A stretch of DNA of 40,286 bases. Origin: a virus. Its lineage: Duplodnaviria > Heunggongvirae > Uroviricota > Caudoviricetes. The notes below the pieces were generated by a model that was given only the letters and a program-made list of their open reading frames with translations, ran no database searches and had not been told where the DNA came from. The DNA lies in IMG/VR virus record IMGVR_UViG_2541047822_000001, positions 1-40,286 of that record; one strand, written 5' to 3'. Shown in pieces: positions 1,459 through 40,286 of this stretch (the stretch's first letter is position 1; every line of letters begins with the position of its first letter). The position numbers and the translations under genes are program-made.

Positions 1459-2622
1459 TTACACATCATTAGTACCTTCCTTATTTTTTGACTGGGACAA
1501 ATTTGGGACCGATGGGTTCAGGATCGAGTCTATTTGCCGTGCGTGTTCGGTAAGGTGATTAGGTGCAAGGTGAGCATATCGACGAACCATTTCGATAGAC
1601 TCCCAGCCTCCCATTTCCTGTAACACTGACAACGGGACTCCGGCTTGAACCAGCCAACTTGCCCAGGTGTGTCTCAAGTCGTGAAATCTGAAATCATCAA
1701 TACCAGCCCGTCTCAGCGCCGCTTTCCAGGCTGTGTTTGCGTCATACCGCATCTTCCTTACTGTTGGCGCTTTCGTTCCGTCTGGTTTGGTACAGCTTTC
1801 CTTGTACACAAATACCCAACGGTGATGATTCCCGATTTGTTTTTTCAAAACGCGACATGCAGTATCATTCAGCGCAACGCCGATTGCGCGGTTTGATTTA
1901 CTCTCTTCCGGGTTTATCCATGCCACCCGGCGCTGCATATCTATTTGTTGCCATTCAAGGTTGATGATGTTCGAGCGTCTTAAGCCTGTTGCCAGTGCAA
2001 ATTCAACAACAGACTTTAATGGCTCCGGACATTCATCAATCAGCCTTTGTGCTTCATGGGGCTCCAGCCAGCGGATCCGTTTATTCTTTGGTTGAGGCAC
2101 TTTAATAATTGGTGCCTTATCCAGCATTTTCCATTCACGCTCTGCGGCTCTTAGTAGGGCCTTTATAAATGAAAGATGCGTAGCCTTCGTTGCAACGGAC
2201 GCTGGTTTTGGCGTGTATTCTGGAACAGGTTTCCCTTTTTTTCTGCATGCTTCTGCCCTGAGTTTCCAGTTTTCCTCATGACGCCGGTTCGTCATTTTCT
2301 GCATTGCTGAATAAATTTTTGATTCAGTAATGTCTCTTAGTTGCATTCCTGCGAAATGTTGAAGCCAGAATCCGATCCGGCTTTTGTCATCGTCCAGTGA
2401 TTTTTTATGTGCTTTCTCTTCAAGCCACCTGACACACGCTTCCTCGAACGTTATATCAGGTATTTCACCAAGTTTGCTGACCCGCCATGCTTCAGCCTTT
2501 AGCTTGTCATGGAGTTCTGTCGCCTGCCTTTTGTCCTTTGTTCCAAGAGACTGTTTAAATCTTTTACCGTTCGGCAATGTGAAACTGGCGTACCATATTT
2601 CACCTCTGCGGAAGAGTGACAT
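1459..2622 (-). CDS. int: phage tyrosine integrase
   Basis: 387 aa; N-terminus [14 protein letters not shown]..., C-terminal catalytic region [39 protein letters not shown] (R..H..R..Y signature). Stop lies 14 bp from the tRNA 3' end, the usual int-next-to-att arrangement. Confidence 0.9.
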
Positions 2623-27751: not shown

Positions 27752-29579
27752 ATTTGAGCTTAAGGCGTTGATCACCGGTGTCGACAGGCTTTCTCCCGCG
27801 CTGTCGAAAATGCAAAAGAAAATCCGGGGATTTAAACGCCAGGCGGAAGAAGCGTCACAGGGTGGGCTGGCGCTTGGTGGCGGACTGGCAGCGGGTCTGA
27901 CGCTTTCCCTGAAATCTTATGCCGATCAGGAAAACGCCGCCACCGGGCTGAAAGTCGCTATGATGGATGCGAACGGCGAGATTGGAAAGCGCTTTCAGGA
28001 CATCAATAAACTGGCTATTGGCCTGGGTAACCAGCTACCCGGTACAACGGCTGATTTCCAGAACATGATGCAGATGCTGGTGCGTCAGGGGATCCCGGCA
28101 GAAAACATTCTGAGTGGTGTGGGTAAAGCGACAGCTTATCTTGCGGTACAACTGAAAAAAACACCGGAAGCGGCTGCTGAGTTTGCTGCAAAGATGCAGG
28201 ATGCTACCGGAACGGCGTCAGAAGACATGATGGGGCTGTTCGACACTATCCAGAAGGCGTTTTATCTGGGCGTGGACGATACCAACATGTTGTCCTTCTT
28301 CACTAAAACCAGCTCTGTTCTGAAGATGGTGAACAAGGACGGTCTTCAGGCTGCACAGAGCCTTGCCCCCATCAGCGTCATGATGGATCAGATGGGGATG
28401 AACGGGGAGTCGGCAGGTAACGCCCTGCGAAAAGTTATCCAGTCCGGATTAAGCGTTAAGAAAATCAGGGACGTCAATAAAATCATGGCCCGCCAGAAAC
28501 TCGGGGTACAGCTCGATTTTACTGACGGCAAAGGGAGTTTTGGCGGTCTTGATAACATGTTCAGGCAACTGGCAAAGCTGCGAAAACTGACCGACGTTAA
28601 ACGAACTGGTGTACTTAAGGCAATATTTGGTGATGATGCCGAAACCCTTCAGGTGGTCAATGCACTAATCGATAAAGGAAAGGATGGCTACGATCAGATC
28701 CAGCAGAAGATGAATAAACAGGCCAGCCTGAATAAACGTGTTCAGGCACAGCTTGGTACGCTGTCCAACCTGTGGGAGGCAATGACAGGGACCGCAACTA
28801 ACGGCCTTGCGGCTATTGGCGGCGCATTTTCTGGTGACGCTAAAAATATCACGCAATGGCTGGGGGAGTTGGGGGAGAAATTCACGAAGTTTGCGGATGA
28901 AAATCCCCGGGTTATTCGCGGCGTCGTCGGGCTTGCTGCTGGTCTTGCGATTCTGAAACTGGGATTGATGGGCGTTGGCGGTGCCATCAGTATTGTCAGC
29001 AGGATCATGTCGATGACACCGATTGGCATGATTGCGACGGCGATAGCCCTGGCTGCGGGATTAATTATCACTAACTGGGATGTTGTCGGACCTTATTTTA
29101 AGAAACTCTGGGAAACCATTGGTCCTTATTTTGAGGCTGGCTGGGAACTCCTTAAGAAAGTTTTTGCCTGGTCGCCGCTGGGGATGGTGATCAATAACTG
29201 GGGGCCGGTTGTTAAGTGGTTTCAGGATATGTGGGACAAGCTGAAGCCAATTATTGAGTGGTTTACCGACAGTTCCGGTGACACGGTCGATGCCATTAAC
29301 TCTGCGCAGTGGGGCGCGGGTGCTTATGATGCTTATGGGACGGGAATACCGGCGCGGGGATACACACCTTATCCGGCGGTAGATCCGGCTCAGTCAAACA
29401 ACGCCTCCGGTGCCACAGGCCCGAATCCCTTCATGATTAACAAAGCTTCTGCGCCAAAAGTTGATGGTGAGATCAAGGTCTCTTTTATGAATTCGCCTCC
29501 GGGTATGCGGGTTATGGAAACGCGATCCAGCGGTTTTGATGTCAGCCATGATGTTGGCTATACGCGCTTTGGCAGGTAA
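27744..29579 (+). CDS. tail tape measure protein
   Basis: 611 aa, helical N-terminal half, Gly/Ala-rich transmembrane-like central segment, position after the chaperone pair. Confidence 0.85.
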   Translation: MAEFELKALITGVDRLSPALSKMQKKIRGFKRQAEEASQGGLALGGGLAAGLTLSLKSYADQENAATGLKVAMMDANGEIGKRFQDINKLAIGLGNQLPGTTADFQNMMQMLVRQGIPAENILSGVGKATAYLAVQLKKTPEAAAEFAAKMQDATGTASEDMMGLFDTIQKAFYLGVDDTNMLSFFTKTSSVLKMVNKDGLQAAQSLAPISVMMDQMGMNGESAGNALRKVIQSGLSVKKIRDVNKIMARQKLGVQLDFTDGKGSFGGLDNMFRQLAKLRKLTDVKRTGVLKAIFGDDAETLQVVNALIDKGKDGYDQIQQKMNKQASLNKRVQAQLGTLSNLWEAMTGTATNGLAAIGGAFSGDAKNITQWLGELGEKFTKFADENPRVIRGVVGLAAGLAILKLGLMGVGGAISIVSRIMSMTPIGMIATAIALAAGLIITNWDVVGPYFKKLWETIGPYFEAGWELLKKVFAWSPLGMVINNWGPVVKWFQDMWDKLKPIIEWFTDSSGDTVDAINSAQWGAGAYDAYGTGIPARGYTPYPAVDPAQSNNASGATGPNPFMINKASAPKVDGEIKVSFMNSPPGMRVMETRSSGFDVSHDVGYTRFGR

Positions 29580-29639
29580 TGAAAAATTAATCTGTTAATG
29601 AGTCCCACTCCGGTGGGATTTTTTATGTACGGAGTTTAT

Positions 29640-30968
29640 ATGACGTGGAAAGACAGACTTCAGGACGCGTCATTTCGCGGTGTGCCGTTTAAGGTTGAAG
29701 AAGAAAGTGCGGGAACCGGTCGTCGTGTGGAAACGCACGAATACCCGAACCGCGACAAACCCTATACCGAAGACCTGGGGAAAATCACTTTCCGCCCGTC
29801 CATCACAGCTTATGTGGTGGGAGATGACTGCTTTGACCAGCGCGATCGCCTGATTGACGCGCTGAATAAACCCGGTCCCGGCACGCTTGTCCATCCGACT
29901 TACGGTGAGCTGAAAGTCTGTGTTGACGGGGAAGTTCGGGTCAGCACATCGAAGAGTGAAGGGCGTATTGTCCGCTTTGACCTGAAGTTTGTCGAAGCGG
30001 GAGAACTCTCTTACCCCACTTCAGGTGCGGCGACGGCGCAGACGCTGATGTCATCCTGTTCTGCACTGGATGACTGCATCAGTGACAGCTTCAGTGGTTT
30101 CAGTATCGATGGCGTGGCAGATTTTGTGCAGAACGACGTCGTCGGTAATGTCAGCACAATGCTTGGGTATGTTTCTGATGCGATGAAAGTGGTGGATTCT
30201 GCCGTATCGGATGCCGCCAGGCTGTTGCAGGGGGATATCTCGGTACTTCTGCCGCCGCCATCGTCAGGCAAAAATTTCGTTGAGCAGGTGCAGAAAATGT
30301 GGCGTACCGGGAAACGCCTTTATGGTAACGCCAGCGACCTGGTCACCATGATCAAAACGCTTTCCGGTGTCAGCCTCGGCAGCGATCTGCAACCGCGCGG
30401 CGTCTGGAAAACGGACAGTAAAACCAACGCCACGGCGACGCAGCAGCGTAACGTGGTTGCCAGCACCCTTCGTACGACCGCAATCAGCGAAGCGGCGTAT
30501 GCCGTCACACGATTGCCTGCGCCCACAACTTCCGCGGTGATGCAGAATGCCACAATGGGGCAGTCAACAACACCCGCGCAGAGCACCGGCTGGCCTTCTG
30601 TCACGCATCCGGCACTGAACAATGCACCGGCGGTGAAAAACACGGTTGACCTGCCAACGTGGGAAGAACTGACCGACATTCGCGACACACTGAATACGGC
30701 AATTGATAAGGAGTTGTCCCGTACAACCAGTGATGCGCTGTTTCTGGCGCTGCGCCGGGTGAAAGCAGATCTGAATGCGGATATCAACACGCGCCTTGAA
30801 CAGTCTGCACGGATCATTCAGCGCACGCCGGATGAGGTTTTACCCGCGCTGGTGCTGGCGGCGACCTTGTTTGATAACGCGGCGCGTGACGCGGACATTA
30901 TCCGGCGTAATGCCATTACGCATCCCGGCTTTGTGCCGGTGATCCCTCTGAAGGTGCCAGTGCAATGA
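29640..30968 (+). CDS. Mu N-like DNA circularisation / tail protein
   Basis: ATG at 29640 (GGAG Shine-Dalgarno) gives MTWKDRLQDASFRGVPFKVEEE..., as in Mu gpN-like proteins. Confidence 0.8.
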   Translation: MTWKDRLQDASFRGVPFKVEEESAGTGRRVETHEYPNRDKPYTEDLGKITFRPSITAYVVGDDCFDQRDRLIDALNKPGPGTLVHPTYGELKVCVDGEVRVSTSKSEGRIVRFDLKFVEAGELSYPTSGAATAQTLMSSCSALDDCISDSFSGFSIDGVADFVQNDVVGNVSTMLGYVSDAMKVVDSAVSDAARLLQGDISVLLPPPSSGKNFVEQVQKMWRTGKRLYGNASDLVTMIKTLSGVSLGSDLQPRGVWKTDSKTNATATQQRNVVASTLRTTAISEAAYAVTRLPAPTTSAVMQNATMGQSTTPAQSTGWPSVTHPALNNAPAVKNTVDLPTWEELTDIRDTLNTAIDKELSRTTSDALFLALRRVKADLNADINTRLEQSARIIQRTPDEVLPALVLAATLFDNAARDADIIRRNAITHPGFVPVIPLKVPVQ

Positions 30969-32050
30969 ACGACAATGTCACGCTACGGGTAAATGGCCGG
31001 GAGTGGAATGGCTGGACATCGGTGCGCATCGGTGCCGGTGTTGAACGACTGGCGCGGGATTTCAGTGTGGAGATCACCCGCCAGTGGCCGGGAGATGAGG
31101 GTATTACCACGCTTCAGTCGCGCATTAAAAACGGTTCAAAAGTGGAGGTGCTGATTGGTGATGAGCTGGTGATCACCGGCTGGGTGGAGGCGACGCCCGT
31201 TCGTTACGATGCCCGTTCGGTCAGCACCGGTATTGCCGGACGTAGTCTGACGGCTGACCTGATTGACTGTGCAGCCGAACCGACACAGTTTAACGGACGC
31301 TCGCTGGTGCAGATTGCGCAGGCGCTTGCTGCGCCTTTCGGCATTGAGGTGGTGAACAGCGGTGCGCCGTCGGGTGTTATTCCTGATGTTCAGCCTGATC
31401 ACGGTGAAACGGTGATTGAGGTAATCAACAAAATACTCGGTCAGCAGCAGGCACTGGCTTACGACGACCCGCACGGCAGGCTGGTGATTGGCGGTATTGG
31501 CTCAACGCGGGCACATACTGCGCTGGTACTCGGGGAAAACATCCTTTCCTGTGATACGGAGAAGAGTATCCGGGAGCGGTTTTCTGTTTACCAGGTGGCG
31601 GGGCAGCGTGCCGGAAACGACGATGATTTCGGTGAGGCCACCACCACCGCGCTGCGGGCCCGCACAGAGGACGCATTTATTGCCCGTTACCGTCCGATGT
31701 ATATCAGGCAGACAGGGCAGGCTACGGGGGCAGGCTGTATTGCCCGTGCGGACTTTGAAGCCAGACAACGGGCGGCGCGGACGGATGAAACCACCTATGT
31801 GGTGCAGGGCTGGCGACAGGGTAACGGTACGCTGTGGCAGCCCAACCAGCGGGTGATTGTCTTTGATCCGGTCTGTGGTTTCGACAATACCGAACTGCTT
31901 GTTTCGGAAGTCACGTTTACTCAGGACCAGAACGGCACCCTGACGGAAATCCGTGTCGGCCCACCTGATGCTTATCTGCCTGAACCCGAAGCCCCCGGCG
32001 CGCGAAAAAAGCCAGAGTACAGGAGGACCCGTTCTGATGAGGACGATTGA
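30965..32050 (+). CDS. Mu P-like tail/baseplate hub protein
   Basis: 361 aa, coupled to the upstream gene, in the Mu gpP position. Confidence 0.75.
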   Translation: MNDNVTLRVNGREWNGWTSVRIGAGVERLARDFSVEITRQWPGDEGITTLQSRIKNGSKVEVLIGDELVITGWVEATPVRYDARSVSTGIAGRSLTADLIDCAAEPTQFNGRSLVQIAQALAAPFGIEVVNSGAPSGVIPDVQPDHGETVIEVINKILGQQQALAYDDPHGRLVIGGIGSTRAHTALVLGENILSCDTEKSIRERFSVYQVAGQRAGNDDDFGEATTTALRARTEDAFIARYRPMYIRQTGQATGAGCIARADFEARQRAARTDETTYVVQGWRQGNGTLWQPNQRVIVFDPVCGFDNTELLVSEVTFTQDQNGTLTEIRVGPPDAYLPEPEAPGARKKPEYRRTRSDEDD

Positions 32051-32585
32051 AGCCATGCAGCGACAACTCCTCGGCCTGATTGGGCGGGCCGTGGTGAAAA
32101 GCATCAGTGCCGCCACGAAATGTCAGACCGTGGATGTGTCCCTGATTGCCGGTGAACCCAAAGCCGGGGTTGAACATCTTGAACCCTACGGTTTTACCGC
32201 AAGGGCAAACAGCGGTGCGGAAGCGGTGGTGTTGTTTCCGGATGGCGACCGTTCTCATGCGGTGGTTGTTACGGTGTCGGACCGTCGCTACCGCCTGAAA
32301 GGGCTGCAGACGGGTGAGGTGGCTGTCTATGACGATCAGGGGCAGTCCGTGACGCTGACCCGGGAGGGGATCGTGGTGGACGGTGCAGGTAAAACGATCA
32401 CGTTTCGCAATGCACCTGAAGCACGTTTTGAAATGGACCTGGAAGTGACCGGACAGGTGAAAGACCTGTGCGACTCCGGCGGCACCACCATGTCAGCGAT
32501 GCGGCTTGCCTATAACGGGCATCGTCACAGAGAGAACGGTCAGGGCAGTAACACCGACAAACCGGATAAAGCGATGGAGGCATGA
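32037..32585 (+). CDS. baseplate assembly protein V-like (Mu gp45-like)
   Basis: ATG at 32037 with AGGAGG Shine-Dalgarno (track ORF begins earlier at 31953). Confidence 0.75.
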   Translation: MRTIEAMQRQLLGLIGRAVVKSISAATKCQTVDVSLIAGEPKAGVEHLEPYGFTARANSGAEAVVLFPDGDRSHAVVVTVSDRRYRLKGLQTGEVAVYDDQGQSVTLTREGIVVDGAGKTITFRNAPEARFEMDLEVTGQVKDLCDSGGTTMSAMRLAYNGHRHRENGQGSNTDKPDKAMEA

Positions 32586-33010
32586 TGGAACTGTGGCTGA
32601 CGGTGAACGGTAAACGCACCTGCGCCAGCGCACCGCTGGATCCGCTGACCCGCGCCGTGGTGATTTCCCTGTTTACCTGGCGGCGGGCGGAGCCTGATGA
32701 CAACGCCGACGTCCCGATGGGATGGTGGGGGGATACCTGGCCTGCGGTACAGAATGACCGTTACGGCTCCCGACTGTGGCTGCTTCAGCGCAGCAAACTG
32801 ACCAATCAGCTGGTGCAGACAGTAAGGGGGTATATCCGCGAATGCCTGCAATGGATGATTGATGACGGCGTGGTGTCCCGTATTGATCTGGATATCCGCC
32901 GCACCGGGATTAATGAGCTGGGTAACAGTATCACCCTCTGGCGTCGTGACGGACCGGTAATGATTTCTTTTGATGATCTGTGGAGTGCGATAACGCATGG
33001 CGGACAGTGA
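32582..33010 (+). CDS. baseplate protein W-like (Mu gp46-like)
   Basis: 142 aa, ATGA-coupled; position between the V-like and J-like baseplate genes. Confidence 0.7.
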   Translation: MMELWLTVNGKRTCASAPLDPLTRAVVISLFTWRRAEPDDNADVPMGWWGDTWPAVQNDRYGSRLWLLQRSKLTNQLVQTVRGYIRECLQWMIDDGVVSRIDLDIRRTGINELGNSITLWRRDGPVMISFDDLWSAITHGGQ

Positions 33011-34055
33011 ATTTCAGCGCCCGACGCTGGCAGAAAATATCAGTATGCTCCGTAACGATTTATTCGCCAGGCTGGACGTCAGCGACACGCTCCGGCGCAT
33101 GGATGAAGACGTGCGGGCAAAGGTGTATGCGGCGGCGCTGCATACGGTTTACGGTTACATCGATTATCTGGCAATGAACATGCTGCCTGACCTGTGCGAT
33201 GAGTCCTGGCTGGCGCGACATGCTGCGATGAAACGGTGTCCGCGCAAGGGGGCCACGGCTGCCAGCGGGTATATGCGCTGGGAAGGTGTCAGCGATGGCC
33301 TGAAGGTGACCGCCGGGAGCGTGATTCAGCGCGATGACCTGGTTCAGTACACGGCAACTGCTGATGCAACCAGCTCCGGTGGTGTCCTGCGCGTGCCGAT
33401 CGCCTGCTCAAGTGCAGGCGCGGTCGGTAACGCTGACGACGGTACGGCATTAATCCTGGTCACGCCGGTGAATGGTCTGCCGTCTTCCGGTGTTGCAGAT
33501 ACCCTGACTGGCGGATTCGATACTGAAGATCTGGAAACGTGGCGCGCCCGCGTCATTGAGCGGTATTACTGGACGCCGCAGGGCGGGGCTGACGGGGACT
33601 ATGTCGTCTGGGCTAAAGAAGTGCCTGGCATTACCCGCGCATGGACATACCGACACTGGATGGGAACGGGGACTGTCGGTGTGATGATTGCCAGCAGTGA
33701 CCTGATTAATCCCATTCCGGAAGAATCAACGGAAACGGCGGCAAGACAATATATCGGGCCACTGGCCCCGGTGGCAGGCTCTGATTTGTATGTGTTCAGG
33801 CCGGTGGCACATACGGTGGATTTTCATATCCGTGTGACGCCGGACACACCGGAAATACGGGCTGCCATCACCGCGGAGTTGCGTTCGTTCCTGCTGCGTG
33901 ATGGTTATCCGCAGGGAGAACTGAAGGTGTCACGTATCAGTGAAGCGATTTCCGGTGCGAACGGGGAATACAGCCATCAGTTGCTTGCACCGGCGGACAA
34001 TATCACCATTGCGAAAAATGAACTGGCGGTTCTGGGGGCGATTTCATGGACGTGA
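32997..34055 (+). CDS. baseplate J-like protein (Mu gp47-like)
   Basis: 352 aa; conserved baseplate-J position and size. Confidence 0.8.
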
Positions 34056-34630
34056 CAAACGATGATTACATCCGTCTGTTGTCAGCACTGTTGCCGCCCG
34101 GTCCGGCGTGGTCAGCCAGCGATCCGGCGATTGCCGGTGCGGCACCGTCATTAACCCGTGTTCATCAGCGTGCGGATGCCCTGATGCAGGAGCTGGATCC
34201 GCGCACCACCACCGAACTGATAAACCGCTGGGAGCGTCTGTGCGGCCTGCCGGATGAATGTATTCCGGCAGGGACGCAGACCCTTCGCCAGCGTCAGCAA
34301 CGGCTGGATGCGAAGGTTAACCTGGCGGGCGGCATCAATGAGGATTTTTATCTTGCACAGCTTGCTGCCCTGGGCAGACCAGACGCCACCATCACGCGAT
34401 ACGACAAAAGCACGTTCACCTGCTCATCGGCCTGTACTGACGCGGTGAATGCGCCGGAATGGCGGTATTACTGGCAGGTCAACATGCCAGCCGCCACCAA
34501 CACCACCTGGATGACATGTGGCAATCCCTGTGATTCCGCGCTGCGCTTCTGGGGGGACACCGTTGTCGAGTGTGTTCTTAACAAACTCTGCCCGTCGCAT
34601 ACCTATGTGATTTTTAAATATCCGGAGTAA
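34046..34630 (+). CDS. tail protein (Mu gp48-like, DUF2313-like)
   Basis: 194 aa with Cys-rich C-terminus, directly upstream of the tail fibre gene. Confidence 0.7.
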
Positions 34631-34633
34631 TCC

Positions 34634-35242
34634 ATGCATCGTATAGACACGAAAACCGCGCAGAAGGATAAGTTCGGCGCGGGTAAGAACGGTTTTACCC
34701 GTGGTAACCCCCAGACCGGCACGCCTGCCACCGATCTGGATGATGACTACTTTGACATGTTGCAGGAGGAGCTTTGCAGCGTTGTGGAGGCATCCGGTGC
34801 CAGCCTGGAGAAGGGGCGGCACGACCAGTTGCTTACCGCGCTTCGTGCGCTGCTGTTAAGCCGCAAGAATCCGTTTGGTGATATCAAATCGGATGGCACG
34901 GTGAAAACGGCTCTCGAAAACCTTGGTTTGGGAGAAGCGGCAAAACGGAATGTGGGAACAGGGGAAAATCAGATACCTAGTATGTCAGAATGGACATCTG
35001 GGACAGGATGGAATAGAGACCCGTCGGGGAGAATAATACAGCGGGGATTTGCTATGACATCAAGTCAAACTAACATTTTATTCCCGATACCATTTCCGTA
35101 TGACGATTTCGAAGTTATCGTTTGTGCAGCAGATACAGGAGCAAATAAAGGGGCCGTAAATGTGTTGCGAAAATCGAGGCAGGGGTTTTCTGTTTCACAG
35201 GTTGGAAGTATGCCAGTCGCATACAGATGGATAGCGGGGTGA
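34634..35242 (+). CDS. tail fibre protein (constant N-terminus plus currently expressed variable C-terminus)
   Basis: Conserved N-terminus [47 protein letters not shown]...; composition turns AT-rich after the crossover site at ~34917..34937, marking the variable part. Confidence 0.8.
34917..34937. repeat. left crossover site of the invertible segment (gix/hix-like)
   Basis: GAAAACCTTGGTTTGGGAGAAG; the 15-mer TTGGTTTGGGAGAAG (34923..34937) recurs inverted at 36705..36719. Resembles remembered Hin/Gin sites with an AAACC..GGTTT core. Confidence 0.6.
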
Positions 35243-35247
35243 TTGAA

Positions 35248-35685
35248 ATGTATAAATTTGATCCAAAGAATGCATTATTCTATCCTGCTGCGTCAATTTC
35301 CGATTATAAATTGAGCGAAGATGAAATCGCCACATTCACTGATATTAGCGAGGAGGATGCAACCGAGTTTTTAGGATTCCCGCCGACTGGAAAAATCAGA
35401 GGGTCGGACGGTTATGGCAATCCTGCATGGGTTGAAATACCTCCACCATCACATGAGGAACTTATTGAACAGGCCGAATCAGAGAGGCAATTATTGATTA
35501 ACCATGCCAACGAATACATGAACAGTAAACAATGGCCTGGTAAAGCGGCTATTGGTCGTCTGAATGGTGAGGAACTGGCGCAATATAATTTGTGGCTGGA
35601 TTATCTGAACGCACTGGAACTGGTTGATACCTCCAGTCCGCCAGATATTGAATGGCCTACGCCTCCGGCAGTTCAGGCCAGATGA
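35248..35685 (+). CDS. tail fibre assembly protein (Tfa)
   Basis: ATG at 35248; C-terminal ...LWLDYLNALELVDTSSPPDIEWPTPP is the typical Tfa ending. Confidence 0.8.
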   Translation: MYKFDPKNALFYPAASISDYKLSEDEIATFTDISEEDATEFLGFPPTGKIRGSDGYGNPAWVEIPPPSHEELIEQAESERQLLINHANEYMNSKQWPGKAAIGRLNGEELAQYNLWLDYLNALELVDTSSPPDIEWPTPPAVQAR

Positions 35686-36259
35686 CATCCGGCGCGGTGC
35701 TGGTATCTGTTGCCGTCACCGCGTCAATGTAATCCAGCACAGCGTTAAGTCGGGTGGTTTCTGCCTGCGTCAGTTTACGTCCGGCCTGCAATTTCAGTTG
35801 AATCAGACTGATGGAAGCCATTGCAGTATCAATCAGCGACTGGCGCTGTGCTTCTGCTGCATCTACTGCGGCGCTATGCTGTGCCCCGGTATCCGTCACC
35901 CATTTCTCACCATCCCATTTATCATATGGCGTTAACGGGGCGATAGTGGTTGTATTTTCAGGGTAATCACCCGGAGCTGTGATTTCTTTCGATTCTCCTG
36001 TTTCGGTGCTATAGATGATTTCACCGCGATGGTCTGGCACATATTCCCATGAGTTAAAATCTGCAGAACGGCAGATTGCATAACCAGCTTTGTATGCGCC
36101 TGGATCATCTAAACAGGAACATGCCGGAATGCCGACACCCACAGCAAGATATTCAGTTGATGTGGAAATATATTCCCGCGTTTCACCATCATAGTTATAA
36201 ACCGTAATATTTCCTGCTTGGGTGGCGATAAATTCGTTATTTAATACAGCGTAATCCAT
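35657..36259 (-). CDS. alternative tail fibre assembly protein (inverted copy)
   Basis: Convergent with the first Tfa; C-terminal ...LNAVLDYIDAVTATDTSTAPDVIWPELPEA parallels the Tfa motif. Confidence 0.8.
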   Translation of the reverse strand: MDYAVLNNEFIATQAGNITVYNYDGETREYISTSTEYLAVGVGIPACSCLDDPGAYKAGYAICRSADFNSWEYVPDHRGEIIYSTETGESKEITAPGDYPENTTTIAPLTPYDKWDGEKWVTDTGAQHSAAVDAAEAQRQSLIDTAMASISLIQLKLQAGRKLTQAETTRLNAVLDYIDAVTATDTSTAPDVIWPELPEA

Positions 36260-36759
36260 TATGCAGCCCTCACGATATAATTAAAGGCAATGTTTCGAGG
36301 CCTGTTCTCACTTGCCGTTGGAACGGAATTAGAAGCATTAAAAGTCACCTGTTTGGCAAATCCCGTTCCGGCGCTATCTCCTGATGCTGAACCAAGATTA
36401 ACCATTTTGAATGCCCCGTTTGCTGCCGCAGAAGGGTTGAACCTCACATCTGTAATGGCACCATTAATATTGCGAATTGCATCTCCTTGTGACGAAAGCA
36501 AGATACGGTTAGTATCTATTCCTCTTCCGTCATCCCAGCCGCGAATAAACTCACCACGTAAATCAGGCAATTTATTTGTCGGATAAGCCTTTGCCAGTTC
36601 CGGGTATTCTTCAGCAGAAAAAGCTGCACCGTTGCATTTCAGCCAGCCTGTCGGCGGAGTGGCGGAAGGCCATGGAACAGGGACACCAACAGGTAATGCC
36701 GAACCTTCTCCCAAACCAACGTTTATGAAAATGCAGAAATAACGAGCAAAAGGCATCAT
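36259..36759 (-). CDS. alternative tail fibre variable C-terminal segment (needs inversion to be expressed)
   Basis: Minus-strand frame encodes a tail-collar-like domain (WLKCNGAAFSAEEYPELAKAYP...LPDLRGEFIRGWDDGRGID); its 5' end carries the inverted crossover site and has no promoter or conserved N-terminus of its own. Confidence 0.7.
   Translation of the reverse strand: MMPFARYFCIFINVGLGEGSALPVGVPVPWPSATPPTGWLKCNGAAFSAEEYPELAKAYPTNKLPDLRGEFIRGWDDGRGIDTNRILLSSQGDAIRNINGAITDVRFNPSAAANGAFKMVNLGSASGDSAGTGFAKQVTFNASNSVPTASENRPRNIAFNYIVRAA
36705..36725. repeat. right crossover site of the invertible segment
   Basis: CTTCTCCCAAACCAACGTTTATG on the + strand is the reverse complement of the left site (perfect 15-mer plus partly matching flank), about 60 bp upstream of the invertase start. 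Confidence 0.6.
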
Positions 36760-36785
36760 TCCTGCTTTTGTCAGGGGGAGCTACC

Positions 36786-36914
36786 ATGCTTATTGGCTAT
36801 GTACGCGTATCAACAAATGACCAGAACACCGATCTACAACGTAATGCGTTGAGCTGTGCAGGATGCGAGCTGATTTTTGAAGACAAGATAAGCGGTACAA
36901 AGTCCGAAACCTAG
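36786..36914 (+). pseudogene. DNA invertase (Gin/Pin/Hin serine recombinase), truncated after 42 codons
   Basis: MLIGYVRVSTNDQNTDLQRNALSCAGCELIFEDKISGTKSET then stop. This is the invertase N-terminus, including the catalytic-Ser region (VRVST), but the remaining ~140 codons are absent; an unrelated AT-rich sequence follows. Confidence 0.8.
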
Positions 36915-36962
36915 GGCTGACACTGCTGTTCTTGTTGCAAATTAAAGGATTTAATAGTGAGT

Positions 36963-36988
36963 AGCGGCCTTACTAATGTAAGGCCGCT
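36963..36988. terminator. hairpin downstream of the GmrSD-like gene
   Basis: Perfect 10-bp stem AGCGGCCTTA / TAAGGCCGCT with loop CTAATG, 22 bp beyond the minus-strand gene's stop; T-rich on the plus side (ATAATCATTTTATT). Confidence 0.45.
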
Positions 36989-37009
36989 ATAATCATTTTA
37001 TTAATTGCA

Positions 37010-38899
37010 TTAATCGTGTTTTGGCCATACTTTCAATGCAATTTCCCCCAACTTTTTACCCCGCTCCAGGATTTCATCCTCATCCCATTTATCCTTAACT
37101 ATAAGTGGAATGTTCAGTCGTAGATTGGTGTGGACGATGAGAGCATCACGTTTTTTCAGAAATACAGCATTCTGAACAGAACGGTTTACGCTAAGGTTAA
37201 GCAAAGTTAGATTTCCCAACGTAGCTATCGCTTGTTGCCGTTTCCTTACCAGTAGCTGCTCAGGGGTAAGATCTGTTCCAGACAGAACAATTTGGTTCAA
37301 TACCGTTGCATCTGAATTTGTCACCATATGACCATTTTCGAGAGGCCAACAGGAATACCAACTTTGAGGCATAAGATGATCGATATCGAGATTGGAAAGA
37401 TTTGGAACATCAGGCTTCTCTGTCTTCACTTGGCGACAAAGTTCTCTTTCAAGTTCCGTTAACATTGAGCGCATTTTCGGTGCGTCGAGCCTGCCAGGAT
37501 AAAGTGGAGCATTGATGCAAGCATTGAGAAATTCTGAGTCACCAGGCCAACGTGAGGCTTCGCCATTTAAGCTATTGAGGATATTACGTAACTCAACACT
37601 GGAAATTTCCGTTTTAGACAAGTGCCGCAATACATTCATAAATACATTGTTGTAATTCTTTGGCGTCAGGCCACATACGGCTCTTCGTACTACGTAGGAG
37701 ACAAGATCATTATACATGGCTGCTTTCTCATCATCGGCGATGTTAGCTATCGAAATGAACAAAGCAAGCGGATAAAGTGTCGTCACATCATAGGCTGCGA
37801 TGCGATGTCCAAAGTGTGAGATGGGGGTTGTGCCAAAACCACCAACCAATTCTTTATATTGTGATGCATATTGTTTGAGGCGCTTTACTTGCAGATCAGC
37901 TCGTTGTGAAGGCAAGTCCTTACTTACATAATCACGATACTCATTGTAAAGACGAGACAGATCAATTTCACGTTGCCTTTCTGATTGCAATGTCGCATGC
38001 ACTAGCCACTCCATGCGTGGTTTATTAATACGTCCACGGCGTTGCCTTTCCGACCAGTATGTATCTTCAAAGCTCTTCCACTCATTTTCATATAATTCAA
38101 TAGCATTAATATTTTCATGCTCAGCGCACATAAAGATGTAGTTGCGAATAAGATCCGTGGCATGAAGTTCCGCCCCTCGGCCATTTAATGTTTCAAAAAT
38201 TATTTGGGCATCATCTTCAGCTTCGAGAAATATGCTTACCAGTTTCAGATCCGTCAAGACAGCCTCAATTAGTGCTACAGCATTTTCATGTGGTGAGTAC
38301 TTTTCTATTTTAATCCATTTTATAAAGGCTTCAGTAAAAAACCATAATGCCTCTAGTGACGGCGGGTGGTTGAAATGTTTACGTAACGTACCATGTTGCG
38401 TGAAGCTATCAGAAAATACATCACGGAGATCGTCAATGTTTTCAACGTTAAAACTTTGAATAAAATGAGTTTGGTCTCGAAAAGTTGGCCACAGTTTGAA
38501 GCATTCTACCTTTTTATTTCGCATAGTTGCTTCGTTTGTATTTTTCAAGCAAGTCAATACTAACCCTTCCAAATCAGAAAGGCCTGTAGCACGCAATGAT
38601 AATCGAATGGATGCCAGAATATATTGAAGAGTGGTTAAACGTTGCTGGCCGTCAATAATATGTATGGTATCTACACCTAACAAGCTGTTTTTGAGTTGAG
38701 GTTCCAGCACCACCGCGCCAAGGAAATGGGGAGTTGGTTTTGTTCCCAAAAGTCGGCTATGTGCTTTTTCGAAGATATCCTCCAGCAAAGCTGACCATTG
38801 GTTTTGTTGCGTCCATACGTAGGCACGTTGATAGAATGGAACACGATATTGTCGTTGATTTTGGAAAAGTTGCTGGATGGTTAGCGTTTCGGATTTCAT
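37010..38899 (-). CDS. GmrSD-family nuclease (DUF262 ParB-like N-domain + DUF1524 His-Me C-domain), likely type IV restriction enzyme
   Basis: 629 aa; N-terminal ...QRQYRVPFYQRAYVWTQQNQW... (DUF262 signature, IDGQQR downstream) and C-terminal ...LSNLDIDHLMPQSW...LGNLTLLNLSVNRS... (DUF1524 signature). Markedly AT-rich; lies between the truncated invertase and IS5. Confidence 0.85.
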   Translation of the reverse strand: MKSETLTIQQLFQNQRQYRVPFYQRAYVWTQQNQWSALLEDIFEKAHSRLLGTKPTPHFLGAVVLEPQLKNSLLGVDTIHIIDGQQRLTTLQYILASIRLSLRATGLSDLEGLVLTCLKNTNEATMRNKKVECFKLWPTFRDQTHFIQSFNVENIDDLRDVFSDSFTQHGTLRKHFNHPPSLEALWFFTEAFIKWIKIEKYSPHENAVALIEAVLTDLKLVSIFLEAEDDAQIIFETLNGRGAELHATDLIRNYIFMCAEHENINAIELYENEWKSFEDTYWSERQRRGRINKPRMEWLVHATLQSERQREIDLSRLYNEYRDYVSKDLPSQRADLQVKRLKQYASQYKELVGGFGTTPISHFGHRIAAYDVTTLYPLALFISIANIADDEKAAMYNDLVSYVVRRAVCGLTPKNYNNVFMNVLRHLSKTEISSVELRNILNSLNGEASRWPGDSEFLNACINAPLYPGRLDAPKMRSMLTELERELCRQVKTEKPDVPNLSNLDIDHLMPQSWYSCWPLENGHMVTNSDATVLNQIVLSGTDLTPEQLLVRKRQQAIATLGNLTLLNLSVNRSVQNAVFLKKRDALIVHTNLRLNIPLIVKDKWDEDEILERGKKLGEIALKVWPKHD

Positions 38900-39237
38900 T
38901 GTTTACCTATAAGTGACATTCCACAAGAGTAAGAAATTCATCTGAGTCAGAATAATCATTTTTATGTAGTCATGATACAGTGTATTTGTTGCTGGTGAAG
39001 TAAAAACGAGAAATCCCGCTTTTGAATGCTGACGTGCTACGGCTTCATTGGATATTCTCTTTTGTCTGTTCTCCATTGCGTCGGTGTTTTGTCGAGATTG
39101 TTAGCACATTGTTTCTGCTGTTTTTTTATCCAAGCGCTGCTAAATCATTGTAGATGGCACTATCGGGTATTGAAGCTGCAGACATGTCGTATACAATAGT
39201 CAGCTACGGCTGGCTGGTGAATTTCCGATAGTGCTAG

Positions 39238-40286
<1,049 letters not shown>

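Follow-up and report, generated by a model that had tools for sequence, protein, structure and literature searches.

Organization of the invertible segment

The DNA analysed here is a stretch of 40,286 nucleotides (the window) in which a phage tail-fibre gene and two assembly genes lie next to the remnant of an invertase gene. The question that this locus raises is whether a fibre switch that has lost its own recombinase is dead or may still be turned by other means. The surrounding prophage is apparently a complete member of the e14/SfV family with a Mu-type baseplate and a contractile tail, and an integrase, terminase, sheath, tape measure and baseplate are all recognizable. It adjoins tRNA-Thr(CGT), following a proA-like ORF, and is integrated at thrW, which rules out an insertion in icd as for e14. 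The locus itself is an ordinary variant of the known e14/SfV-type tail-fibre switch, and its parts are the following.

34634-35242, plus strand: tail-fibre ORF of 202 aa with a Gp53-like_C domain (Pfam)
34634..34922, plus strand: constant 5' part of the fibre (Sc), outside the segment, aa 1 to ~97, ending in ...TALENLG (from the ORF; joins either variable end in frame)
34911-34936, plus strand: left 26-bp crossover site (pix-type), CTCTCGAAAACC-TT-GGTTTGGGAGAA, 26/26 against the left site of K-12 e14
34923..35242, plus strand: currently expressed variable end (Sv), Gp53-like C-terminal domain (Pfam PF21882, E=5e-8, aa 128-201)
35249..35685 (longest ORF from 35227), plus strand: tail-fibre assembly gene (tfa) cognate to Sv (Pfam Caudo_TAP, E=4e-30)
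35657..36259, minus strand: tfaE-like assembly gene cognate to the silent end (Pfam Caudo_TAP, E=2e-32)
36259..36759, minus strand: silent alternative fibre end (Sv'), 166 aa, Collar domain (Pfam Collar, E=1e-15)
36706-36731, plus strand: right 26-bp crossover site, TTCTCCCAAACC-AA-CGTTTATGAAAA, 26/26 against the right site of K-12 e14

The Sc region is 96% identical to K-12 ymfQ-stfP at the nucleotide level up to position 34946, and the tfaE-like gene is 91% identical to K-12 tfaE. In strain 22AR0750, the assembly gene of Sv is annotated as tfa, with a product of 145 aa. The two Caudo_TAP genes are convergent and overlap by 29 bp. The Sv' ORF lies inside the segment from 36719 leftwards, and its 18-codon leader, with an ATG of its own (36759), lies outside. 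Inversion in silico produces an in-frame Sc-Sv' fusion of 247 aa, which is also the length of the annotated fused protein of UTI89 (WP_000554665.1). As in the Din-family systems, inversion swaps in-frame fibre C-termini, each with its cognate assembly gene.

The original prediction, in which the fibre gene, two convergent tfa genes and an alternative fibre end were bracketed by inverted crossover sites as in a G-segment-type switch, is upheld by the Pfam gene content (including both Caudo_TAP genes), by the sites and by the in-frame fusion. The bracketing, however, applies to the 3' two-thirds of the fibre gene, codons 1 to ~97 being outside the segment. The alternative end, which was predicted to be promoterless, starts at an ATG outside the segment, and a sigma-70 consensus scan upstream of this ATG gave no hit but was uninformative.

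Crossover sites

A 20-nt inverted repeat with one mismatch (34918-34937 versus 36705-36724) is present in these two copies only within the 40-kb window, and 100 dinucleotide-preserving shuffles of the window gave no match for it. A window scan with the core pattern AAAC[CG]WW[CG]GTTT, allowing ≤ 1 mismatch, returned the same two sites only. Mu gix and the published consensus served as references for the window sites. Read on the plus strand, the central dinucleotides of these sites are TT and AA, which represent one dinucleotide in inverted orientation, and two inverted 26-bp sites with an AAACC-NN-GGTTT-type core and matching central dinucleotides are what is expected of the Din family. The repeat scan and the identity with the e14 sites thus confirm that inverted copies of a Hin/Gin-like crossover site flank the segment.

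When ≤ 2 mismatches were allowed, one extra match appeared at 36907 (AAACCTAGGGCT), located at the pin truncation junction. It is treated as a chance match because its half-sites match poorly; neither a third crossover site, as in a multi-inversion system, nor quasi-site recombination as the source of the pin truncation is proposed.

Truncation of pin and the adjoining cassette

To the right of the segment, the following features are found.

36786-36914, plus strand: pin stub, a 42-codon ORF (Pfam Resolvase, profile positions 2-48 of 145)
36805..36872: predicted Fis-dependent recombinational enhancer inside the pin stub (homology)
36807-36821: putative 15-bp Fis core 1, GTATCAACAAATGAC, 15/15 against the same positions of Mu gin
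36856-36870: putative 15-bp Fis core 2, GTGCAGGATGCGAGC, 13/15 against the same positions of Mu gin
36910..37009: start of the replacing cassette (homology break)
36961-36990: hairpin terminator with a 13-bp stem (terminator scan)
37010..38899, minus strand: single-chain GmrSD type IV restriction enzyme (DUF262/DUF1524), 629 aa (Pfam GmrSD_N and GmrSD_C)

The stub, annotated as a pseudogene in RefSeq, retains 124 nt (41 codons) of homology, with 40 of the 41 amino acids identical to PinE and the catalytic Ser9 included. In the alignment to intact pinE the homology stops at 36909, followed by a foreign Thr codon and TAG. In place of a complete adjacent serine invertase there is a stub that has little of the catalytic domain and no HTH domain, and the claim that the invertase is reduced to a 42-codon stump holds in both the Pfam and the pinE alignments. 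A frameshifted, diverged invertase remnant past 36909 was considered on the basis of weak MAFFT similarity, but rejected, the local alignment of 36910-36960 with four invertase genes scoring no better than shuffles.

The exact 15-bp cores at 36807-36821 and 36856-36870 are those that we take to be the Fis sites from the hin/gin literature. The distance between the crossover centre and the centres of the cores is ~95 and ~144 bp. This putative spacing fits the published enhancer geometry, in which a 65-bp enhancer that has a Fis site at each end is situated ~100 bp away from hix (PMC3798978), and Fis sites are located within the gin coding region (PMC3378877). From this homology, the stub may keep a Fis enhancer in cis. 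Third-codon-position identity of the stub to gin is in slight excess (0.54 in codons 1-41 versus 0.43), and the excess is absent in comparison with the P2-like gene; synonymous-site conservation over the enhancer was judged too weak to serve as evidence.

The GmrSD cassette displaced the 3' three-quarters of pin, and the same pin-stub/GmrSD junction is present in the sequences L003, L005, L006, L007 and L008. The enzyme is recognized by PADLOC as mREase_IV (1479 bits, 629/629 positions) and belongs to the UTI89_C2960/Eco94GmrSD family (PMC4437046). It is a type IV restriction gene of the kind active against T-even phages. In related prophages the invertase/GmrSD slot holds different defence genes.

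This neighbourhood brings up a reading in which the main role of the segment in the lysogen is defence: inversion would fuse the 36759 leader to the Gp53-like end, producing a StfE2-like block of T-even adsorption alongside GmrSD. In K-12, inversion of e14 makes StfE2, for which a block of T2 adsorption has been reported (PMC12529663), and the window contains a homologous leader (MMPFARYFCIFINVGLGEG versus MPFACYFFIFINVGLGEG in K-12) in addition to the neighbouring anti-T-even gene. However, StfE2 activity is not transferable by homology, because the variable end differs from K-12 StfP, with no nucleotide similarity over 34947-35580. Moreover, a sigma-70 consensus scan of the minus strand upstream of 36759 detected no promoter-like site, overall counts being below the shuffle mean, and virion fibre function is the default because the prophage looks complete. 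Defence as the main role is considered quite improbable. It is compatible with, and not exclusive of, the explanation preferred below.

Orientation of the segment in related prophages

Of 5426 complete E. coli genomes, 298 have the pin-stub/GmrSD junction. Among these 298 carriers, 67 have the Collar end beside the stub, as in the window, and 78 have the opposite, UTI89-type orientation. UTI89 and IHE3034, both with the stub only, differ by an exact flip: the flanks of 3135 bp and 5431 bp (8.6 kb) have no mismatches, while the 1929-bp segment of one is exactly reverse-complemented in the other, the breakpoints falling on the central dinucleotides. Apart from this clean inversion, the two sequences do not differ over 10.5 kb. 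APEC O1 exhibits the same segment flip relative to UTI89.

The original prediction held that the switch had been frozen by the loss of its invertase, a claim on which segment orientation among sequenced relatives should bear. Contrary to it, both states are found with the stub/GmrSD junction. Since identical prophages in other strains show a flipped segment, the switch is better regarded as dependent than as dead.

Candidate invertases acting in trans

The near-identical strains 22AR0750 and E371 both match window positions 28607-40286 at 99.93%, and in both the segment has the same orientation as in the window. Each of them also carries a P2-like prophage encoding a compatible, intact 197-aa invertase, and the invertible segment of this prophage matches window positions 34918-36324 at 97%. 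The P2-like enzyme of 22AR0750 is WP_000905106.1. In 22AR0750, the invertase-proximal site of the P2-like prophage is identical (26/26) to the right site of the window. The Tfa protein WP_032252818.1 is common to both phage families (e14-type and P2-like), between which cassettes have clearly been exchanged.

Dependence on a trans-acting invertase, which had been proposed as the alternative to loss of switching, is favoured by this intact member of the Pin/Gin/Hin family and its 97%-identical segment. The suggested donor, e14 Pin, is not, since no second pin-type 5' region was detected at the megablast level in 22AR0750 and E371. The likely donor in these best-matching genomes, judging from the sequences, is the co-resident P2-like prophage. 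In several ST95 stub genomes (S88, PMV-1 and others) no second Din-type chromosomal invertase was found at blastn sensitivity, and in strains of this type the segment may for that reason now be static. In UTI89 and IHE3034, a chimeric anchor-plus-invertase query matched a second place, a result in counts only that may not represent an invertase.

The P2-like copy also bears on a different origin of the two orientations, namely RecA-dependent events, either inversion between the short repeats or gene conversion or cassette exchange with a near-identical segment. Such a segment is available in the same genome, and the shared Tfa points to cassette exchange between the families. Site-specific and homologous exchange inside the identical repeat core are, moreover, indistinguishable by sequence, because any exchange within the identical ~16-20 bp gives the same product. 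The repeats, however, share only ~20 bp, which is under the length for efficient RecA-dependent recombination in E. coli, and the inversion between UTI89 and IHE3034 has its breakpoints at bona fide inversion-permissive sites and is free of any other change. A RecA-dependent origin is regarded as highly improbable.

It is also unlikely, though less so, that the segment is truly frozen here, with only the Gp53-like-C fibre being made and the polymorphism elsewhere being historical. The severity of the truncation, the common orientation in 22AR0750 and E371, and the stub carriers that lack another detectable Din invertase would all agree with a frozen state. So would the K-12 pinE deletion mutant, in which the P segment is locked despite the presence of PinQ and PinR (PMC12529663) and which indicates that native trans-inversion can be inefficient; this deletion presumably also removes the enhancer. 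Against a frozen state stand the exact flip between two strains having the stub only and the flipping already published for EC958 in spite of a truncated invertase. A further point against it is that the best-matching genomes encode an intact invertase whose prophage has an identical crossover site and a segment 97% identical to that of the window.

Taken together, the locus is probably a P-type invertible fibre segment that is cis-competent and, after the loss of pin, trans-dependent. Through the 26-bp site, Sc is joined to either of two variable C-termini, which have separate assembly chaperones encoded behind them, and inversion swaps the Gp53-like-C fibre and its tfa (the current state) for the Collar-domain fibre and tfaE. 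The GmrSD restriction cassette replaced all of pin past nucleotide 124, destroying the cognate serine invertase. What survives in cis is the pair of crossover sites and, judging from homology, the Fis enhancer, which Din-family invertase genes carry within their first ~90 nt; with all of these retained and pin destroyed, the segment would be competent in cis and reliant on an enzyme supplied in trans. A compatible Din-family invertase from elsewhere, most plausibly that of the co-resident P2-like prophage, would flip the segment, which would stay put wherever no such invertase is present. Flipping in this particular strain, and the P2-like enzyme as its agent, are suggested by the genome comparisons.

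Comparison with known systems

In experiments, PinE inverts the P segment of K-12 e14 at TTGGTTTGGGAGAAGG / CCTTCTCCCAAACCAA, and PinQ, which a different prophage encodes, does so in trans (PMC12529663). The window and e14 agree in their 26-bp sites (26/26) and in the order of their genes (ymfQ, stf, tfa, tfaE on the minus strand, stf' on the minus strand, pin). Their nucleotide identity is 91-96% in tfaE, in the constant part of the fibre and around the site and pin. They differ in that the window pin is cut to 124 nt, GmrSD occupies the mcrA position, the variable-end alleles are others (no similarity over 34947-35580 and 36292-36511), and the segment is 32 bp shorter. In contrast to the apparently complete window prophage at thrW, e14 is cryptic and located at icd, with mcrA downstream of pin.

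The invertase of prophage Phi4 in EC958 (ST131) is severely truncated, but both orientations of the segment were seen in PacBio reads, which the authors put down to an invertase supplied in trans (Forde et al. 2014, PMC4134206). Common to the two cases are the truncated invertase and a near-identical site pair in a co-resident prophage with an intact invertase. Phi4 is, however, a different prophage, with the site sequence TTATCGAATACCTC GGTTTACAGGAA and a 3106-bp segment; its flipping was read directly, whereas here it is deduced from genome comparison, and the paper names no GmrSD cassette in the truncation of the EC958 invertase.

The Mu G segment with Gin and the P1 C segment with Cin share with the window the Sc/Sv-U/U'-Sv' layout, the place of the invertase gene next to the segment, immediately behind it, and 26-bp sites with the AAACC-NN-GGTTT core. 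Their Fis sites lie within the 5' end of the invertase gene, as the putative Fis cores do here. Codons 1-41 of Mu gin are 88, 93 and 54% identical to the stub region at codon positions 1, 2 and 3, respectively. Unlike these systems, the window has a central dinucleotide TT (TC in Mu), other outer half-sites, a much shorter fibre and an invertase that is not intact.

Fin of Fels-2 is described as acting on the Salmonella H segment (Kutsukake 2006). PinQ of Qin on e14 and Fin on the H segment resemble the proposed case in that a prophage-encoded invertase flips a segment elsewhere in the genome. The target's own invertase is intact in both, whereas the window target would be wholly reliant on a foreign enzyme.

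Implications

Trans-inversion of e14 (Kirigo 2025) and flipping despite a truncated invertase (Forde 2014) are already published, and the understanding of Din-family inversion is unchanged by the present case. The displacement of a phage recombinase gene by an anti-T-even restriction gene is a widespread event (298/5426 genomes). A more speculative idea, and a rather doubtful one, is that the 124-nt stub is kept in ~5% of complete E. coli genomes for its Fis enhancer, GmrSD having taken the invertase slot while the switch stays cis-competent and its flipping is outsourced to the invertases of co-resident or superinfecting phages. If true, outsourced switching would tie together the host-range states of unrelated prophages that share a cell.

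For annotation, a neighbouring 'pseudogene recombinase' is no reason to score a fibre switch as dead. Because the comparative record shows flips after the loss of the invertase, the host range of a prophage can depend on co-resident phages, and the StfE2-like adsorption-blocking effects reported for K-12 may likewise depend on the phages that share the cell.

Crossover sites and genes of the invertible segment

The repeat finder places two inverted arms of 20 nt, 95% complementary, at 34918-34937 and 36705-36724, and a pattern search with the 20-mer, allowing up to two mismatches, gives 2 copies in the 40-kb window against 0 in 100 shuffles. The repeats can be extended to the 26-bp format of the Din family. 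The inner half-sites of the two resulting sites are complementary at 12 of 12 positions and the outer half-sites are unlike; the central dinucleotides (TT and AA) correspond to an inverted orientation. A looser core pattern run over the whole window yielded no third crossover site.

Features of the segment and its prophage
1459-2622, minus strand: integrase
34634-35242: fibre ORF, 202 aa, with a Gp53-like C-terminal domain
34911-34936: left 26-bp crossover site, CTCTCGAAAACC-TT-GGTTTGGGAGAA
35227/35249-35685: Caudo_TAP assembly gene
35657-36259: second Caudo_TAP gene, opposite strand, convergent with the first
36259-36759, minus strand: Collar-domain fragment, 166 aa
36706-36731: right 26-bp crossover site, TTCTCCCAAACC-AA-CGTTTATGAAAA
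36786-36914: 42-codon ORF (the pin stub), matching the first third of the Resolvase domain only
37010-38899, minus strand: full-length single-chain GmrSD, which displaced pin (junction at 36910)

The anatomy described in the original prediction, a fibre gene, two convergent tfa genes and an alternative fibre end bracketed by Hin/Gin-like sites, is correct except that the fibre gene does not lie wholly inside: the segment takes in only its 3' two-thirds. When the segment is inverted in silico at the central dinucleotides, the constant 5' part of the gene runs on in frame into the Collar end, giving a protein of 247 aa, which is also the length of the annotated fibre protein in genomes of the opposite orientation.

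On its sequence, the region is orthologous to the P segment of e14, a cryptic prophage of K-12. Both have their genes in the order ymfQ-stfP-tfaP-tfaE-stfE-pinE, both 26-bp sites are identical (26/26), identity is 91-96% in the constant portion of the fibre gene, in tfaE and over the site/pin region, and the stub shares 40 of 41 residues with PinE, including the catalytic serine. In contrast, the two variable ends differ in allele, which is normal among fibre mosaics, and the prophage is integrated not at icd but at tRNA-Thr(CGT) (1369-1444), with a proA-like ORF of the aldehyde-dehydrogenase family upstream. Besides the integrase it encodes a large terminase, tail sheath, tape measure and a Mu-type baseplate (gp44, gp46, gp47 and gp48/YmfQ homologues); the sequenced phages to which it is related are the Shigella/E. 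coli phages SfIV, SfI and the like.

Truncation of pin by a GmrSD cassette

Homology to intact pinE genes ends at 36909, beyond which similarity to invertase genes is no better than that of shuffled sequence. The cassette from 36910 consists of a strong hairpin terminator (36961-36990) and the minus-strand gene, whose 629-aa product has GmrSD_N and GmrSD_C domains and matches the PADLOC type IV methyl-directed restriction enzyme model end to end (1479 bits). The enzyme belongs to the single-chain GmrSD group with UTI89_C2960 and Eco94GmrSD. Both of these restrict T-even phages, Eco94GmrSD cuts glucosyl-hydroxymethylcytosine (T4-type) DNA, and their genes had already been seen to lie directly downstream of tail-fibre genes in prophages (PMC4437046). 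Because different defence-type genes follow pin in related prophages (mcrA in K-12 e14, a GIY-YIG gene after intact pinE in 2009C-3133, GmrSD and GIY-YIG in UTI89), this position behaves as a variable defence slot.

The truncation might also be ascribed to the invertase itself, recombining at a quasi-site: the junction at 36907-36918 (AAACC-TA-GGGCT) weakly resembles the crossover core, but its half-sites match poorly, and the likeness is therefore probably due to chance.

An IS5-family (ISKpn26-like) transposase gene (39306-40286) is cut by the window end; in genomes 22AR0750 and E371 it lies between GmrSD and the remaining right end of the prophage, and it is absent there in UTI89.

Inversion among carriers of the truncated gene

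The identical stub/GmrSD junction is found in 298 of 5426 complete E. coli genomes. The original prediction held that the switch was frozen by loss of its invertase, and proposed comparing orientation among sequenced relatives; both orientations are found. The Collar end adjoins the stub, as in the window, in 67 junction carriers, and is fused to the constant part, with tfaE on the forward strand (the UTI89-type arrangement), in 78; the rest have other variable alleles beside the stub. The near-identical genomes 22AR0750 and E371 both carry the orientation of the window.

Between UTI89 and IHE3034, the left flank (3135 bp) and right flank (5431 bp) show zero differences, while their 1929-bp segments are exact reverse complements of each other, and the breakpoints fall at the central dinucleotides. 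The same flip is seen in APEC O1. Since both the UTI89 and the IHE3034 loci contain the stub only, the segment has inverted after the truncation of pin, unless the same junction arose twice. Homologous recombination could yield the same product by exchange anywhere within the ~16-20 identical repeat bases, with no distinction in sequence, but a repeat this short makes it an unlikely source of the flip.

Assemblies of strain 2020N21-246 contain stand-alone P-type-segment contigs of ~3.1 kb (NZ_JBQJRR010000008.1 and NZ_JBQJRQ010000007.1); their resemblance to the alternative-orientation contigs of EC958 would suggest a population of mixed orientation. Some members of the stub-carrying family are decaying further, e.g. 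strain 127 (locus L005, 2980-5105), in which the left side is disrupted, with stfP truncated, a glycine-rich ORF and one tfa partial.

Candidate invertase and predicted enhancer

Over 28607-40286 the genomes 22AR0750 and E371 are 99.93% identical to the window, with 1 mismatch (29018) and one 7-nt gap; the window would thus come from a very close relative and not from one of these two deposited sequences. Each also has a P2-like prophage whose Din-family invertase (197 aa) is intact and beside which a 97%-identical copy of 34918-36324 (L004 4069-5475 in 22AR0750; L011 1569-2975 in E371) spans almost the whole invertible segment. In 22AR0750 the invertase-proximal site is identical to the right site of the window (26/26). 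On the strength of this site and the segment match, the enzyme flipping the P2-like segment should recognise that of the window. With both orientations among junction carriers, the exact UTI89/IHE3034 flip and an intact compatible invertase in the best-matching genomes, the description of the switch as frozen is unsupported, at any rate over evolutionary time. The Tfa protein WP_032252818.1 occurs both in the P2-like segment and in the e14-like segment of 2009C-3133, and fibre cassettes are passing between unrelated prophage families.

A search at blastn sensitivity, with a chimeric query in which a GmrSD anchor was combined with C-terminal portions of two invertase genes, matched one place only in several ST95 chromosomes, among them both orientations (e.g. 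S88 and PMV-1); therefore, some stub carriers may now be without any chromosomal Din invertase. For the flip in the ST95 lineage, candidate enzyme sources are a lost prophage, a plasmid or a superinfecting phage.

Aligned with gin, the stub keeps the sequence corresponding to the Fis-site region. The 15-mers GTATCAACAAATGAC (36807-36821, identical to gin) and GTGCAGGATGCGAGC (36856-36870, unlike gin at 2 of 15 positions) are the putative Fis cores, assigned from homology and the hin/gin literature. The centre of the crossover is ~95 and ~144 bp away from theirs, and the putative enhancer ends ~37 nt ahead of the truncation point. [quoted passage not shown] A K-12 mutant deleted for pinE is reported to stay locked even though it has PinQ and PinR (PMC12529663). 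That deletion presumably removes the enhancer too, whereas the natural truncation in the window does not.

Relation to known systems

Knowledge of the e14 P segment and Pin goes back to 1985 (Plasterk and van de Putte), and phase variation of the segment in culture has been quantified (PMC4272514). In 2025, PinQ of prophage Qin was reported to invert it in trans, giving a chimeric StfE2 that blocks T2 adsorption (PMC12529663). In EC958, the fibre segment of prophage Phi4 flips despite its own severely truncated invertase, which was credited to the enzyme of a co-resident prophage (PMC4134206). The feature is real and its outline was correctly recognised; both the system and this type of defect were known before. 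What is added here is a specific truncation allele, widespread and created by a GmrSD cassette, evidence from genome comparison that this allele still flips, and a truncation that spares the presumed enhancer.
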